A DNA stretch of 64,000 nt from an uncultured delta proteobacterium (GTDB lineage Bacteria; Desulfobacterota; Binatia; UBA9968): contig CAVWLW010000054.1 in NCBI GenBank assembly GCA_963755715.1, forward strand, positions 1-64,000. Reading direction: 5' to 3'. The notes beneath the pieces are model-generated. The model was not told the origin of the DNA. It searched no databases and was given only the letters and a program-made list of their open reading frames with translations. Of this stretch, positions 38,963 through 52,390 are shown one piece after another (position 1 is the stretch's first letter; every line of letters begins with the position of its first letter). The translations under genes were made by a program, and so were the position numbers.

Positions 38963-39863
38963 TTGAACTCAAACTTCGTTGCCTGCTGCACCGGCAAATC
39001 AGCCGGTTTGGCACCTTTCAAAATTTTGTCCACGTAAACAGCGGCGCGCCGATAGAGGTCATCGTAGTCCGCCCCGTAGGACATGAGGCCGCCCTCATCG
39101 ACATACTGCTTCTGGGGGTAAATAGCCGGCAACCGGTATTTCCGGCAAGCTCGACGATCCGCTTTCTTTCGGCGAAAAAGCAGCGACCGCTGGTCGTCAT
39201 AATACCGCCCACCTGCTTCTGCTTTGCGGTTTGAAAGGCGCTCTCTAAACCTTTGGCGTCGGGTGGAGTGTCGATTCCTCCAATTTCAGCTTCAATGCCA
39301 CAGCCGCAGTCCTGAGCTCTTTCAGTTGGAGGTCTCTTCTATGTGCCTCCCGGCGGCCGCAGAAGTCCAACTAGGGCGAGCTTGGGGACTGCGTCCTTGA
39401 GTATCTCTAGCCTTTTGGTACTTAGCTCGGACGCTAAACCCGCGAGCCCAGTGACATTGCCTCCCGGCCGCGCCAGACTGGCAACCAAACCTGCAGCCAC
39501 GGGGTCCCCAATGCTTACCATCACGATGGGGATGGTAGTAGTCGCTCTCTTCGCCGCTAACGCCGCGGCGTCCCTGAGACCACGATCAGATCAACCTTGA
39601 GACGAACCAGGTCCGCCGCAAGCTCAGGTAGACGCTCATGCTCTTGCTCTGCAAATCGGTACTCGATGGCAATATTCTTTCCCTCAATCCATCCAAGCTT
39701 GCTCAGCTCTTGCAGAAACGCCTTCACGAGGACCGCAATACCAGAAGCAGTGCTAGCATCCAGGAAACCGATGCGGAAGATTTTCCCGGCTGCTGCGCCT
39801 GGTGAAAGAGCAAAGCGCGAAAAGCATGGCGCAAAGATTAAGGACGGCGATTTTTCTCTTCAT
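38963..39863 (-). pseudogene. COG2984-type ABC substrate-binding protein, copy 1 (frameshifted, 3'-truncated)
   Basis: [48 protein letters not shown] in several frames. Confidence 0.85.
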
Positions 39864-39891
39864 GTCTTTTGAGGTGCGCAACGTCGAACCA

Positions 39892-40883
39892 TCACTTAAT
39901 CACTTTGTCCGCTCTCGCCAGCACATTCGGCGGAATCGTCAGGCCGATCTGCTTCGCCGCTTTAAGATTGATTAACAGCTCGAACTTCTTTGGCTGTTCG
40001 ACTGGCAGGTCAGCAGGTTTAGCGCCTTTGAGAATTTTGTCCACGTAGACGGCAACTCGCCGGTAGGGTTCAACCTGGTCGGCCCCGTAGGACATCAAAC
40101 CACCGTTGTCGACAAAATCTGCCCGATGATATATCGCCGGCAGTCGATTTTTTGCCGCGAGGTCCACAATCTGTTTTCGATTTGAAACGGCCAACGGGCT
40201 TCCGGCCACAGCAAGAGCGGCACTACCCGTCTTGATACCCTCATTGAACGCAATCTCGTATTGGTTGGCGTGACTTACCTCCATGGAGTGAAGTTGCAGA
40301 CCCAGTTCTCGGGCTGGCAACTGACTTTCTTTCCATGCTTCCGCACCATTTGGATCCCGCGGATCCCACAACACCGCCACGCGGGCGAGCTTGGGAACCG
40401 CTTCCTTGAGCAACTCTAGTCGCTTACCCGATAACACCCCCGAAATCGCGGAGAATCCCGTAATGTTCTCCCCAGGCCGCGCTAGGCTGTCAACCAGCCC
40501 AGCGGCAACAGGGTCAGACACCCCTATAAAAACGATTGGGATCTCTTTGGTAGCGTTCTTGGCGGCTAAAGCAGCAGGCGTTGAGGACATGACGAGCACG
40601 TCAACCTTGAGACGAATTAGCTCACCCACCAACGCCGGGAGCCGGTCGAACTTTTCCTCCGCGGATCGATACTCGATAATTATGTTCTTACCTTCAACAT
40701 AGCCGAGTTCGCGGACTCCTTGCCGGATTAGTTCAAGGCGGGTGCCTGGACCGGAAGCGGAACGGAACCGCTTGAGAGCACCCCAATCTTAGCCAACTTT
40801 GTCTGTTGCTGCGCCTCGGCTATGACCGCAACAGCAAGCAGCATCACTGCAACCAGGATTGATAGCGCCGCAGCTTTCTTCAT
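39892..40883 (-). CDS. COG2984-type ABC substrate-binding protein, copy 2 (frameshift(s) in 5' part)
   Basis: MKKA start after [48 protein letters not shown]. Confidence 0.85.
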
Positions 40884-40995
40884 TGCACACCTCGTTCTTG
40901 CGGCTTTTTATCACGGATACGGAAGCTGAGAAAAGTGTTATTTACGGCAGAAGGAAAACCAGATTCATCGAGGGGAAAAAGGCTAATTTCGACGT

Positions 40996-41067
40996 AGGAT
41001 TGAACTGAACGACGCTTCAGACAAATCTCATAGGATTTGTCGTGGATGGAGAATTCAATTCAATCCT
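40996..41067 (-). repeat. Conserved intergenic hairpin, copy A
   Basis: AGGATTGAACTGAA-CGACGCTTCA-GACAAATC-tcatag-GATTTGTC-gtgGATGGAGAA-TTCAATTCAATCCT. Confidence 0.9.
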
Positions 41068-41080
41068 GGCATCGCCGCGC

Positions 41081-42066
41081 TTATTTGATCACCTTATCCG
41101 CCCGCGCCAGCACCTTCGGCGGGATCGTCAGGCCGATCTGCTTCGCCGTTTGAGATTGATCATCAGCTCGAACTTCGTCGGTTGCTCGACAGGAAAGTCG
41201 GCGGGCTTGGCGCCTTTTAGAATTTTGTCCACATAGATGGCGGCGCGCCTGTAGTGGTCGTCGAGGTCGGCTCCGTAGGACATCAAGCCGCCGCTATCGA
41301 CAAATTCATCCCGATAGTATATCGCCGGCAATCGAAGTTTTGCCGCCAGTTCCACGATTTGTTTTCGATTGGAAAAGGCGACAGCGCTCGGTGTCACGGC
41401 GAGAGCGGCGCTGCGCGCCTTAGTCGCATCTTTGAACGCACCCTCGAATTTGTCCGCGCTGCTTACCTCCATGGAATGAAGCTGCAAGCCCAGTGCTCGT
41501 GCCGGCAGTTGGCTTTCTTTCCATGCTTGCGCAGAGCCTGGATTCTGTGGATCCCAAAGCAGCGCAACGCGGGAGAGCTTGGGAACGGTTTCCTTGAGTA
41601 ACTCCAGTCGTTTATCGGCCAACACCGCGGCAATGTTAGTCAACCCCGTGATGTTTCCCCCAGGCCGCGCCAGGCTATCAATCAGCCCAGCTTCAACAGG
41701 ATCTGCCACCAGAATAAAAACGATGGGGATCGTCCTGGTAGCGTTCTTGCCGGCTATGGCGGACGGTGTCGTGACAGCAACGAGCACATCGACGTTGAGA
41801 CGGACCAGTTCACCAGCCAGCGCGGGGAGCCGGTCTAACTTATCGTCAGCGGATCGATACTCGATAGCTATGTTCTTGCCCTCAACATATCCGAGTTCAT
41901 GGAGCTTGCGCGGAATAACTCTCCCAGCGGTGTGCCGCGAACGGTAGTACTGCTCTCAAGCCACCCAATCTTGGGTAGCTTTCGCCGGCTGCTGCGCCTC
42001 GGCGATGACTCCAACAGCAAGCAGCACCACCACAAACAGGATTGATAAGACACCGGCTTTCTTCAT
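41081..42066 (-). CDS. COG2984-type ABC substrate-binding protein, copy 3 (frameshifts)
   Basis: Same family motifs; MKKA start; ends ...DKVIK in a shifted frame. Confidence 0.85.
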
Positions 42067-50710: not shown

Positions 50711-50802
50711 ACTATTTCATGCGGTTAACTCTTACGTTTCCCTGCTTGCCTCAACTCATTTTCGCCTCTAACTTTGCTGGCTATATGATTTCGGAAATCC
50801 GC

Positions 50803-51759
50803 TTAACGGTAGAGCTCATCGAAAAAACCCTGCGCTTCAAGCACACGGACATAATGAAGATCCCAGAGCTTGACCGGGTTGCCCGTTTCTTCTAGTTCCG
50901 GATAGACCAGCTGAGCGATGCGGTAAGCGTTGTAAAGCGAGTCGATCTTGGGGCACAGCCGGGGCTCGAGGCTGTTGCTCAGTTTTTGGTAAAAACTTTC
51001 CAGTTCGATGTCATCGCGTATGCCCAGACGATCGGCGACATTGCCGGCGAGGATCTCCATGGTTTTTTCCTTGTCTCGTTTCACCATGGCGACTCCCGTC
51101 GCGATCGCCTTGATCATGCGGATGTAGAGTTCGGGATTATCTTGCACCAACGGAACCAAACTGGTGAGTGTGATCGAGTTGACCATGGGATAACGGGGTA
51201 ACAGTCGGGTGTGGAGTCCGAGGCGCTCGCAAGCTTTCTCCTGGGAGCCGCTGGCAAAGGTCACGTCCGCCTTGCCGTCGAGGAGGAGCTGCTTTTTATC
51301 GCCGCTTTCCACCCGCTTGACGTCCAGTTGATCGGAGGATAGCCCGGCATCGCGGAGATAAAGCTCGTAGGTGCCGCGCACATGGCTAGTGAGATGACCT
51401 TCCTCGTCACAAAAATCCTGTTCGGCCAAAACCCGGTCCTTCAAATCGTTCAAGCCGGCCAGTGGCTTTGTGCTCACGAGCATGTCCTGTGACGTGTTTA
51501 CCGTCTGGGCCATGCAGATCATTGGAACACCGCTGGCGACGCGCCAATGCGGCGTGATGTGGCAACCGAAGATCATGTTGCACTTGCCGTCGAGCAGTTG
51601 ATCCTCGGCGGGGAGAGCGCGATGCTCCAAGTCCATGCGGCTCACCTCAATTCCCAGCCGATCCCAAATGCCGCCGTACTTCATGATCGAGATCATGGCG
51701 AGCTGCGAGTGGTTGGAACGGTAGATCACTTTTGCTTCCAATGTCTTGGGTTGGCTCAT
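50803..51759 (-). CDS. Periplasmic-binding-fold protein (NMT1/TauA-like), no evident signal peptide
   Basis: LNDLKDR, LLDGKAD, NPELYIRMIKAI pattern; AGGAG RBS. Confidence 0.65.
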   Translation of the reverse strand: MSQPKTLEAKVIYRSNHSQLAMISIMKYGGIWDRLGIEVSRMDLEHRALPAEDQLLDGKCNMIFGCHITPHWRVASGVPMICMAQTVNTSQDMLVSTKPLAGLNDLKDRVLAEQDFCDEEGHLTSHVRGTYELYLRDAGLSSDQLDVKRVESGDKKQLLLDGKADVTFASGSQEKACERLGLHTRLLPRYPMVNSITLTSLVPLVQDNPELYIRMIKAIATGVAMVKRDKEKTMEILAGNVADRLGIRDDIELESFYQKLSNSLEPRLCPKIDSLYNAYRIAQLVYPELEETGNPVKLWDLHYVRVLEAQGFFDELYR

Positions 51760-52015
51760 GAGTTGGTTCTCCTTTTTCGAAGTTGACGGTAGGGGTTCGT
51801 TGCGCGCCTATACGGAACACGCCAAAGATATTCGGGTTTTTCAGTCCCTCAAGTCGTCACGTGTTTTAAAGGGAGCCTGAACCGCCAGCGGTGTCTCCCA
51901 GCAGAGCTTTCTTCATTGCGCACCTCGTTTCGAGCGTTATTTATCACGCCAATCGAGCTAAAGAAAAGTGTAATTGACGAGAAAAATTTGTCGAACAGAA
52001 GACTCTACGCAGCCC

Positions 52016-52088
52016 GCGATTGAATTGAACGACGCTTCAAGTTGATCTCACGACAGCGTTGATGGAGAAAACTGTTCAATCCTACGAT
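52016..52088 (-). repeat. Conserved intergenic hairpin, copy F
   Basis: GCGATTGAATTGAACGACGCTTCA...GATGGAGAAAACTGTTCAATCCTACGAT. Confidence 0.85.
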
Positions 52089-52109
52089 TCGCCGCTAAGT
52101 GTTCCTTCG

Positions 52110-52390
52110 TTACTTAATCACTTGATTCGCCCGCTCAAGCACGCGAACTGGAATTGTCAGACCGATTTGCTTTGCCGCCTTGAGGTTAATGATGAATTCA
52201 AACTTCGTTGCCTGCTGCACCGGCAAATCGGCAGGTTTGGCTCCCTTCAAGATCTTGTCCACGTAAATGCTACGTGATCCGATAGCCGTCAATGGCGTCC
52301 GCCCCGTAGGACATGACCCCACCAGCATCTCCAGATACTCTGCCGCCGTACGCCGACGGTAACCGGCTCTTTAACGCAAGCCCACGATAC
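52110..52390 (-). pseudogene. C-terminal fragment of a COG2984-type substrate-binding protein
   Basis: [51 protein letters not shown]; 5' part missing. Confidence 0.8.

Follow-up and report, generated by a model that had tools for sequence, protein, structure and literature searches.

Orphan substrate-binding protein (SBP) genes and their neighbors are joined by a short palindromic repeat in a 64,000-nt stretch of DNA from an uncultured delta proteobacterium of the Binatia (GenBank contig CAVWLW010000054.1, positions 1 to 64,000; hereafter the window). The repeat is built from a 30-bp palindrome, lies past the stop codon or integron attC site of one gene module and usually before a conserved leader of the next, and is where many modules shared between related arrays end. 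We tentatively favor, at somewhat less than an even chance, the reading that this is a lineage-specific junction repeat resembling repetitive extragenic palindromic (REP) sequences, at which modules are exchanged mainly by homology and hairpin formation with no dedicated recombinase. The repeat, rather than the SBP gene, would then be the unit at which these arrays recombine. An earlier note, made from the letters of the window, had described a hairpin-delimited array of SBP paralogs and cargo genes and proposed that the hairpins are single-strand-folded recombination sites of an integron-like system or else a new structured RNA motif.

The repeat is a tandem dimer of a 30-bp palindrome

Coordinates below are those of the whole window, and the genome to which it belongs (7.4 Mb in 76 contigs) is denoted G000. 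Genus-wide tallies take in one unpublished genome, G005, on which no claim depends. Copies of the repeat were detected by direct-repeat search, mismatch-tolerant motif search, nhmmer, a covariance model (CM R1) and reading of the sequence. Twelve copies from G000 and then 90 copies from across the genus were aligned, and 87 distinct copies were used for conservation and mismatch counts.

The basic unit is a 12-6-12 palindrome of 30 bp, with arms GATTGAAYTGAA and TTCAGTTCAATC and the spacers TTCTCC and GCGTCG. Copy alignments reveal that the common form of about 70 nt is a tandem dimer of this unit with a short linker between its halves. The first half (M1) reads GATTGAAYTGAA-TTCTCC-(decayed right arm) and the second (M2) reads (decayed left arm)-GCGTCG-TTCAGTTCAATC. 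What had been described as a variable inner stem thus arises where the two decayed inner arms pair, and the conserved asymmetric loop corresponds to the pair of 6-nt spacers. Monomers also occur: S1, or arm-TTCTCC-arm (for example, at position 26405 of G000 contig C59), has 9 matches with at most 2 mismatches in 6 of 31 genus genomes, and S2 carries the spacer GCGTCG. Across 87 distinct copies, conservation reaches at least 90% in the arm-plus-spacer blocks and in about 35 columns, and pairing is retained in 80% of cells of the copy alignment.

Five intact copies of this element, an inverted repeat of ~70-80 nt on the minus (gene) strand, are present in the window by motif search and reading. 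The 12-mer GATTGAACTGAA occurs 16 times in the window with at most 2 mismatches, against 4.9 ± 2.3 in shuffled sequence, and 0 of 100 shuffles reach 16. Three long-form copies fold better than shuffles: 40990-41073, between two SBP genes (CM R1 score 90 bits, z -6.5); 42169-42251, which begins 4 nt past the attC of a cyclase cassette and is followed by an SBP leader (94.5 bits, z -5.1); and 43779-43859, which has a 3-nt deletion in spacer 2 and lies 6 nt past an SBP stop codon (67 bits, z -3.5). The two other intact copies are degenerate long forms that do not fold better than shuffles. One, at 50270-50353 (59 bits), precedes a leader and SBP gene; the other, at 52010-52089 (71 bits), has an SBP fragment before it and, after it, the leader plus the first SBP codons only.

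A further copy has been split by an insertion sequence (IS). Its 5' portion through spacer 2 lies at 47517-47582 (nhmmer model positions 9-66, with the junction GCGTCG|TTGGACTAAACC), and its leftover right arm (CGTTCAGTTCAATC), recognized by sequence reading, lies at 44966-44979, followed by a leader and SBP gene. A partial copy comprising the first palindrome follows a TENA-like gene at 48076-48121 (CM E 0.05, nhmmer E 0.016), and a weak, degenerate remnant of the first palindrome can be read past an SBP stop codon at 49128-49162 (nhmmer E 1.8 only). All of these are on the minus strand. Copies do begin close after the preceding stop codon, as had been noted, though the measured range is 6-35 nt rather than ~1-35 nt. 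A match at 38961 was rejected as a copy, being SBP coding sequence.

Several predictions about the fold fared less well. A G-T wobble confined to the minus strand had been taken as a mark of single-strand folding, but the 87 distinct copies contain 130 G-T/T-G and 150 A-C/C-A cells; with G-T about as frequent as A-C mismatches, there is no sign of a single-strand-specific fold. The reported covariation of the inner stem is not above shuffles in the 12 G000 copies, and in the 90 copies it exceeds shuffles only on measures that relatedness alone can inflate. Other statements about the element proved accurate. It lacks a U-tract, with no terminator-like site at any copy and 17 sites in the region against 16.1 in shuffles. 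Its ends, GATTGAA/TTCAATC, are not the RYYYAAC/GTTRRRY ends of attC. The element has no match in Rfam: nothing in the window reached the gathering threshold, and a scan of 38500-52500 at E ≤ 1 returned only a chance microRNA match, which lies on the attC.

The repeat marks the joints of gene arrays in one lineage

G000 contains approximately 27 copies or part-copies, clustered on contigs C54, C61 and C35, with few solo copies. A covariance model scan identified the repeat in 18 of 24 congeners (1-46 copies each), in 2 of 5 genomes of a sister family and in 0 of 11 genomes of another family, and viral contigs gave 0 matches. The exact two-part pattern is found in 71 public stretches, 54 of which are titled as Binatia or delta proteobacterium (42 'uncultured delta proteobacterium', 11 'Candidatus Binatia' and 1 'Deltaproteobacteria'); the others are small contigs of soil metagenome-assembled genomes (MAGs) under different labels, plus two probable chance matches. 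Binatota are described in the available part of PMC8262859 as known solely from metagenomes.

Within each of the 11 copy-bearing array stretches, copies and SBP matches all share a single strand. What precedes the repeat 5' is an SBP stop codon, with or without a conserved ~25-nt spacer in between, or else the R' end of an attC. Canonical attC sites end 3-8 nt before the repeat at the window copy mentioned above and at 13 hand-checked copies of 63, and a looser pattern rule marks 20 of 66 copies; the attCs that abut the repeat are each different in sequence. On its 3' side usually stand a conserved leader of ~115 nt and the MKKA... start of one orphan SBP subfamily. Blocks in this leader resemble a -35 and an extended -10 element ~30 nt before the ATG and would constitute a promoter, as predicted from their sequence; a scan with the sigma-70 consensus called no promoter in the leaders.

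Between copies, related arrays contain genes for SBP, TENA, SnoaL/DUF4440, cupin, methyltransferase, glyoxalase, TIR-methyltransferase and GNAT proteins. The arrays therefore carry unrelated genes typical of integron cassettes, in agreement with the earlier description of unrelated cargo. On contig C61 of G000, attC cassettes are interleaved with repeat/SBP units and with many deletion remnants. TENA modules in the congeners G019 and G018 are bracketed by C-terminal remnants of SBP genes, which indicates that not every insertion takes place at the repeat. At a solo copy on contig C65, next to a YncE-like gene, the DNA upstream of the gene's orthologs is unrelated or, in G015, contains a degenerate copy.

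The proposal that the repeat could explain the expansion of orphan SBP genes is contradicted by the arrays that lack it. Most tandem arrays of orphan COG2984 SBP genes are without the repeat, including the largest ones of G018 and G019, genomes with 112 and 72 matches to PF04392, respectively. In these copy-free arrays (contigs C6, C37 and C38 of G018; C2, C14 and C17 of G019) the leader is absent too. As a separate observation, the intergenic spacers of copy-free arrays (L196-L198; C6 and C38 of G018; C2 of G019) are 40-70 nt long and consist of 7-8-nt tandem motifs, such as AGTCAGT, GGAGCAA and GATTTTC, and related motifs extend into the signal-peptide region.

Shared modules often end within the repeat

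Segments shared between arrays were sought by an all-against-all comparison of 314,668 bp of array sequence from G000, G019 and G018 (a MAG that is 80% complete with 6% contamination), retaining high-scoring segment pairs (HSPs) of at least 94% identity and at least 300 bp. Among 10 HSPs, 21 of 40 ends fall in the repeat, and with two reciprocal duplicates removed the figures are 16 of 32 ends and 9 of 16 boundaries. The repeat with margins makes up 1.95% of the sequence compared.

Contigs C21 and C23 of G018 exemplify this pattern. They have two modules in common, of 1480 bp (98.4% identity) and 1524 bp (99.3% identity), in opposite order. Three of the four boundaries of these modules, X and Y, lie at the border between spacer and right arm or at the end of the right arm. 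Module Y starts exactly with the right arm, preceded by a dimer in C21 and by an arm plus TTCTCC in C23 (which produces an S1 monomer), and it terminates at the right-arm end; module X terminates directly past TTCTCC. At the fourth boundary the joint is irregular and falls within a remnant of an SBP gene. The expectation that copies mark gene-order breakpoints is upheld to the extent that, between arrays, module order differs and module boundaries sit at copies.

The flanks of the repeat assort independently of its core, with upstream, inner and downstream sequence types found in all combinations (re-anchored tally). The type of the inner segment is mostly genome-specific (in a first tally, 10 of 14 G019 copies are of inner type X), which suggests exchange or homogenization among copies.

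No recombinase or transposase tracks the repeat

The window array does contain both a recombinase and an HUH enzyme, as a search for co-occurring enzymes might hope to find, but these are part of an IS91-family element inserted into the repeat and are absent from the repeat-rich G019. Genes for the IS91-type recombinase were identified in 9 of 31 genus genomes and were not found in the repeat-rich G019, G017 and G003. The integron integrase IntI (TIGR02249) was identified in 15 of the 31, including the repeat-free G008, G010 and G016; the 46-copy genome G018 gave no match, and in G019, G015 and G014 IntI is never on a contig with copies. Twelve loci matching PF01797 (Y1_Tnp) in G000, G018, G019 and G008 include one with a copy within 1.5 kb and none flanked by copies. 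The distributions of IntI, the IS91 recombinase and the Y1 transposase thus indicate that no enzyme tracks the repeat. Links to IntI and to the IS91 recombinase were discarded for lack of co-variation across the 31 genomes, and a link to REP-associated tyrosine transposases (RAYTs) was discarded because the PF01797 loci are not flanked by copies. An apparent copy near an IS200-like gene on contig C33 is a chance similarity.

IS91-family elements enter the repeat at one position. The junctions of the window element lie at the border between spacer and right arm, reading GCGTCG|TTGGAC ... CCTATCCG|TTCAGTTCAATC, and contig C23 of G018 has two IS91 insertions at the same border in opposite orientation (GGAGAA|TTGGAC ...). 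A side observation concerns contig C42 of G000, where an IS91-recombinase element that itself interrupts a repeat copy carries in its left end a group II intron reverse transcriptase (RVT_1 + GIIM; C42:35009-37857, L013 9010-13299), so that mobile elements are nested at one hairpin.

A crude pairing search recovered 1 attC in the window and ~17 attC-like sites in the whole of G000, none of which is the repeat. An attC hidden around the repeat, formed from the SBP C-terminal coding region and the leader, was also considered and rejected, as by eye the arms do not pair at the right spacing. Elsewhere in G000, we observe a frameshifted integron integrase in three frames (C45:103861-107160, L171 15862-19162; TIGR02249 scores of 250, 152 and 35 bits), with three perfect attCs 3' of the gene reaching the contig end, and a second attC cluster at C50:183-196 kb.

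A homology-driven junction and its alternatives

In the mechanism that we favor, the repeat would serve as the joint of self-contained gene modules, placed past the previous stop codon or attC and before the promoter-like SBP leader, and arrays would be built and reshuffled through recombination between repeat copies. Exchange would be driven mainly by two perfectly conserved blocks of 18-20 nt together with the hairpin-prone structure, by way of host homologous recombination, gene conversion or template switching. The same junction would also draw IS91-family elements, which insert where spacer and right arm meet, and integron cassettes, which come to lie immediately upstream. We favor homology-driven exchange because no dedicated enzyme co-varies with the repeat. 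An added role of the repeat as a terminator or insulator may be envisaged as well.

A number of considerations weigh against this mechanism. At 18-20 nt, the conserved blocks offer little length for RecA-type recombination, and conserved asymmetric 6-nt spacers are not needed for exchange by homology and fit a protein-recognized site better. The S1 monomer joins spacer 1 to a canonical right arm without microhomology, IS91 insertions occur at exactly that border in both orientations, and this common use of the border hints at site-specific cutting. The shared segments comprise only 8 non-redundant cases, several of which involve one MAG (G018), and the 14-kb contig C21 of that MAG may be a strain variant. 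BLAST alignments should in any case break off where a conserved block ends, so that they do not fix the crossover point or the mechanism. Thirty congeners contain no locus orthologous to the flanks of the window array (35.5-38.5 kb and 52.4-56.6 kb), and because of this missing synteny there is no orthologous empty or filled site for comparison. Data from four soil sequencing runs consist of short-read contigs only, which break at the repeat, and the joints across the repeat within them are paralog chimeras.

The repeat might instead be cis-regulatory punctuation of the SBP unit, that is, a terminator, an insulator, an RNA-stabilizing hairpin or an operator pair ~110-190 nt upstream of the SBP promoter, which spread only through duplication of the [repeat-leader-SBP] unit and whose presence at rearrangement ends is a by-product of being repeated. 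We consider this unlikely, though a serious contender. Its position 6-35 nt past stop codons, with several copies between convergent genes, the fixed distance to a leader with conserved -35/-10-like blocks, the two 12-6-12 palindromes with centers ~43 nt apart and the restriction to one SBP subfamily would all suit such a role, and REPs are generally downstream of coding regions and thought to be RNA elements according to the available part of PMC3733652. However, the stem is AT-rich and lacks a U-tract, the terminator scan found nothing at the copies and a total not above shuffles, and G-U pairs are not in excess of A-C mismatches (130 vs 150), which gives no sign of selection for an RNA fold. 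The spacers are conserved as much as the arms, which is unusual for operators; copies also stand before or after unrelated genes without the leader; and flanks assort independently of the core. A structured regulatory RNA of a riboswitch-like or attenuator kind, which would toggle between one long and two short hairpins, seems to us scarcely probable at all. Two exclusive folds are possible (CTGAA occurs twice and UUCAG pairs with either), and a few copies, such as those of L027 and L030, change all three segments jointly. Yet there is neither an Rfam match nor a wobble asymmetry, the covariation is not clearly above the effect of relatedness, the SBP promoter is likely downstream of the repeat, and alternative folds follow trivially from a tandem palindrome.

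The 12-6-12 unit could also be a true site-specific site of a cassette system independent of attC, in which a tyrosine recombinase akin to IntI, or else an HUH enzyme, would cut at x|TTCAG and modules would run from a right arm to the next spacer; geometrically, x|TTCAG is like the G|TT of attC. We judge this quite improbable. The layout, with its conserved asymmetric spacers, is that of a tyrosine-recombinase core site, and the internal register ACTGAAT...GTTCAGT, which lies at the inner end of the outer stem beside unpaired DNA, matches RYYYAAC/GTTRRRY at 5 of 7 and 6 of 7 positions. IS91 elements with an IntI-like recombinase lie at the exact border in the window and twice in contig C23 of G018, the IS junction reading GTTGGAC, and IS91 recombinases are reported as the closest homologs of IntI in the part of bioRxiv 10.1101/542381 that was available. 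The left end of module Y and the right end of module X fall at this border, and attC cassettes abut the repeat. On the other hand, the unpaired stretches are 10-12 nt rather than ~5 nt, there are no extrahelical bases, the target choice of the IS91 family alone could account for the insertions, and the distributions given above contain no co-varying enzyme: the IS91-type recombinase (9 of 31) was not found in G019, G017 and G003, and IntI (15 of 31) is present in the repeat-free G008, G010 and G016, was not found in G018 and is never on copy-bearing contigs in G019, G015 and G014. Finally, the repeat may be a non-autonomous mobile element, comparable to a miniature inverted-repeat transposable element (MITE) or a REP doublet forming a hairpin (REPIN), that enters intergenic DNA with a preference for hairpins such as attC ends and is served by a transposase elsewhere. 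This we regard as very improbable. Copy number varies from 0 to 46 among congeners, genome-specific inner variants suggest recent within-genome spread or homogenization, solo copies stand beside unrelated genes, Y1 transposase matches number 18 in G018 and 9 in G000 against 3 in G008 and 0 in G013, and a palindromic dimer is the form of a REPIN in the available part of PMC3337134. Against such mobility, neither a target-site duplication nor an empty site was seen, copies keep to arrays and to one leader instead of being dispersed, their orientation is always that of the array, a copy lies within 1.5 kb of only 1 of 12 Y1_Tnp loci and copies flank none of them, and viral contigs contain 0 matches.

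These alternatives bear on what the repeat might reveal. Even on a conservative reading, it represents a new REP-like family with an unusual, array-restricted distribution: in an uncultured phylum of soil bacteria, single-gene modules are delimited by a 30-bp palindrome amid true attC cassettes, and IS91 elements, whose recombinases are the nearest relatives of integron integrases, repeatedly strike the repeat at one nucleotide position. It thereby touches on how genes become cassettes and on the shuffling of accessory arrays that takes place outside classical integrons. Should the repeat have a dedicated enzyme, the system would amount to a new platform for cassettes and would offer a hint as to how attC arose. 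It is conceivable, at a rather low probability, that a second, attC-free cassette system coexists with integrons in Binatia-like soil bacteria and that integron cassettes and IS91 elements with IntI-like recombinases recognize the same hairpin. Such a system could represent an extant relative of attC-type sites, or their precursor, and could turn ordinary genes, such as orphan SBPs with their own promoter, into cassettes. A literature search returned no paper joining 'Binatia' and 'integron', and titles and abstracts on 'Binatota' mention no such repeats (supplements left out).

Comparison with known repeats and recombination sites

Like the attC sites of integrons and of clusters of attC sites lacking integron integrases (CALINs), the repeat is an imperfect palindrome that bounds single-gene units in one orientation, with diverse cassette-type cargo and variable unit order. 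It also has an AAC/GTT-containing stem beside unpaired DNA and is physically interleaved with real attC cassettes. An attC is defined by L boxes with extrahelical bases and by an unpaired central spacer of ~5 nt. The repeat differs in that its inner stem is perfectly paired where present, its unpaired stretches measure 10-12 nt and it has no extrahelical bases. Its ends (GATTGAA/TTCAATC) do not form the boxes of an attC, which are approximated only internally (ACTGAAT/GTTCAGT). Moreover, the repeat is highly conserved (~35 columns at ≥90%), whereas the real attCs here share little beyond their boxes, and it has no link to IntI and also lies 5' of a conserved leader. The integron-like part of the earlier proposal accordingly stands as far as module boundaries and breakpoints are concerned, and falls on the attC definition, on the link to IntI and on strand-specific pairing.

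The repeat also has features in common with REPs, bacterial interspersed mosaic elements (BIMEs) and REPINs, which the available parts of PMC3733652, PMC3337134 and PMC3116915 describe as extragenic palindromes of 20-40 bp, mostly dimers able to fold into a larger hairpin. As with the repeat, these sequences are, in the portion of PMC3733652 at hand, lineage-specific and placed after coding regions, where the neighboring genes are co-directional or converge. It differs from them in reaching at most 46 copies per genome rather than hundreds and in being confined to module arrays. It also lacks a consistent terminal GTAG or CGTC tag, which forms part of the REP definition in that portion of PMC3733652: CGTC is found within spacer 2, CTAG or CCAG predominates in the 5' flank, and CTAC (antisense GTAG) follows ~9 of 56 copies by eye. 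Its stem of 12 bp and loop of 6 nt contrast with the 8-9 bp and 4-5 nt given there for CGTC families (PMC3733652). Unlike in REP/RAYT systems, no RAYT gene is flanked by copies (12 PF01797 loci), and unlike an intrinsic terminator, the repeat lacks a G+C-rich stem followed by a U-tract.

The pdif sites of Acinetobacter plasmids have an 11-6-11 layout. The 12-6-12 layout of the repeat is reminiscent of them, but its arms are presumably unrelated to the dif consensus. In the available parts of PMC13141974, PMC6449649 and PMC10132070, pdif sites similarly have short inverted arms and a 6-bp spacer, bound discrete gene modules shuffled between replicons and are targeted by ISs. However, pdif sites, relatives of chromosomal dif, are of the Xer type and alternate in orientation, whereas the sites of the repeat are direct and chromosomal. 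IS91/ISCR elements mobilize adjacent genes. They resemble the present system in that an element with a Y2 HUH transposase lies in the arrays at a GTTC-containing hairpin; they differ in that the repeat is not an IS91 end (by eye, there is no convincing similarity) and that the IS is absent from many repeat-rich genomes.

Genes, attC and IS91 element of the window

The six COG2984-type SBP genes or fragments previously described on the minus strand correspond to six PF04392 genes or fragments by Pfam, and no permease or ATPase domain is present in the 22 open reading frames (ORFs) scanned. By Pfam and reading, the SBP gene at 39892-40880 has an MKKA... signal peptide and a 115-nt leader at 40881-40989; the gene at 41078-42060, broken into frames, has its leader at 42061-42168; that at 43858-44860 is in two frames; and that at 49184-50176, in several frames, has its leader at 50177-50269. 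A decayed SBP gene in several frames forms the array end at 38839-39872. The fragments at 52110-52523 are a C-terminal end and an internal piece, and a repeated 118-nt piece at 52400-52523 is conserved SBP coding sequence. All lie on the minus strand.

The cargo genes, also on the minus strand, were for the most part correctly recognized. The putative nuclease-cyclase is a 436-aa protein with an adenylate/guanylate cyclase domain (Guanylate_cyc, PF00211, E 2.9e-8) at 42341-43651, encoded by an integron cassette. Its 3' end overlaps a canonical attC (GCCTAAC...GTTAGCC) at 42248-42346, minus strand, whose arms pair at -38 kcal/mol; this is the only such site in the window and had been overlooked. 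The supposed membrane protein is a small membrane-like ORF, with a weak match to MgtE. The NMT1-like gene is a 318-aa ORF at 50803-51759 that has no Pfam match at E ≤ 0.01 and only weak similarity (20% identity, pairwise BLASTP E 2e-6) to an NMT1-family SBP of a related array. A TENA/THI-4/heme-oxygenase-like protein, described before as TenA-like, is encoded at 48199-48882 by Pfam. In other arrays, a TENA/THI-4 gene recurs directly past an SBP stop codon after a 10-nt spacer with a Shine-Dalgarno sequence and precedes a C-terminal SBP remnant whose length varies, as if the gene had been inserted into or fused with SBP units (L163 10528-11196, L167 7322-7984, L168 9811-10473 and L198 ~9294).

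No HAD gene is present among the cargo. The three ORFs at 45064-47363 instead belong to an IS91-family element at 44980-47516 (minus strand), identified by matches to PF00589, PF04986, PF14319 and NF033538 and by reading of its ends, which lies in the spacer/right-arm junction of the split copy. It encodes a Y2/Zn transposase (Zn_Tnp_IS91 + Y2_Tnp) at 45064-46513, in two frames, and a tyrosine recombinase at 46527-47363. The recombinase is IntI-like, with a TIGR02249 match that skips model positions 182-245. IS91 recombinases are reported in the available part of bioRxiv 10.1101/542381 as the closest homologs of IntI and as being without its extra domain, and the gapped match agrees with this reported kinship.

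Short-read contigs from other soil runs have 1-nt indels relative to the window at 39141, 41148, 41980, 45333 and 45915. Small indels in short-read soil contigs lie at or near frame breaks of the SBP genes and the IS91 transposase, and also at position 50179, which suggests that some of these frame breaks may be assembly or strain differences. A 628-aa lipoxygenase gene (36080-37966), with no orthologous locus in 30 congeners, borders the array. Positions 1-8000 of the window have a G+C content of 66-73%, compared with 51-59% in the remaining window and 56% in the genome, and may represent a foreign segment or a chimeric contig end. Another repeated module of ~50 nt (GGGCYRATATCTGGATRTAC...GGCAGCGTTTGTC) is found beside several copies of the junction repeat (window 43640-43760; G000 C9:4020-4090; L172 5380-5500) and may be a short attC-like site.

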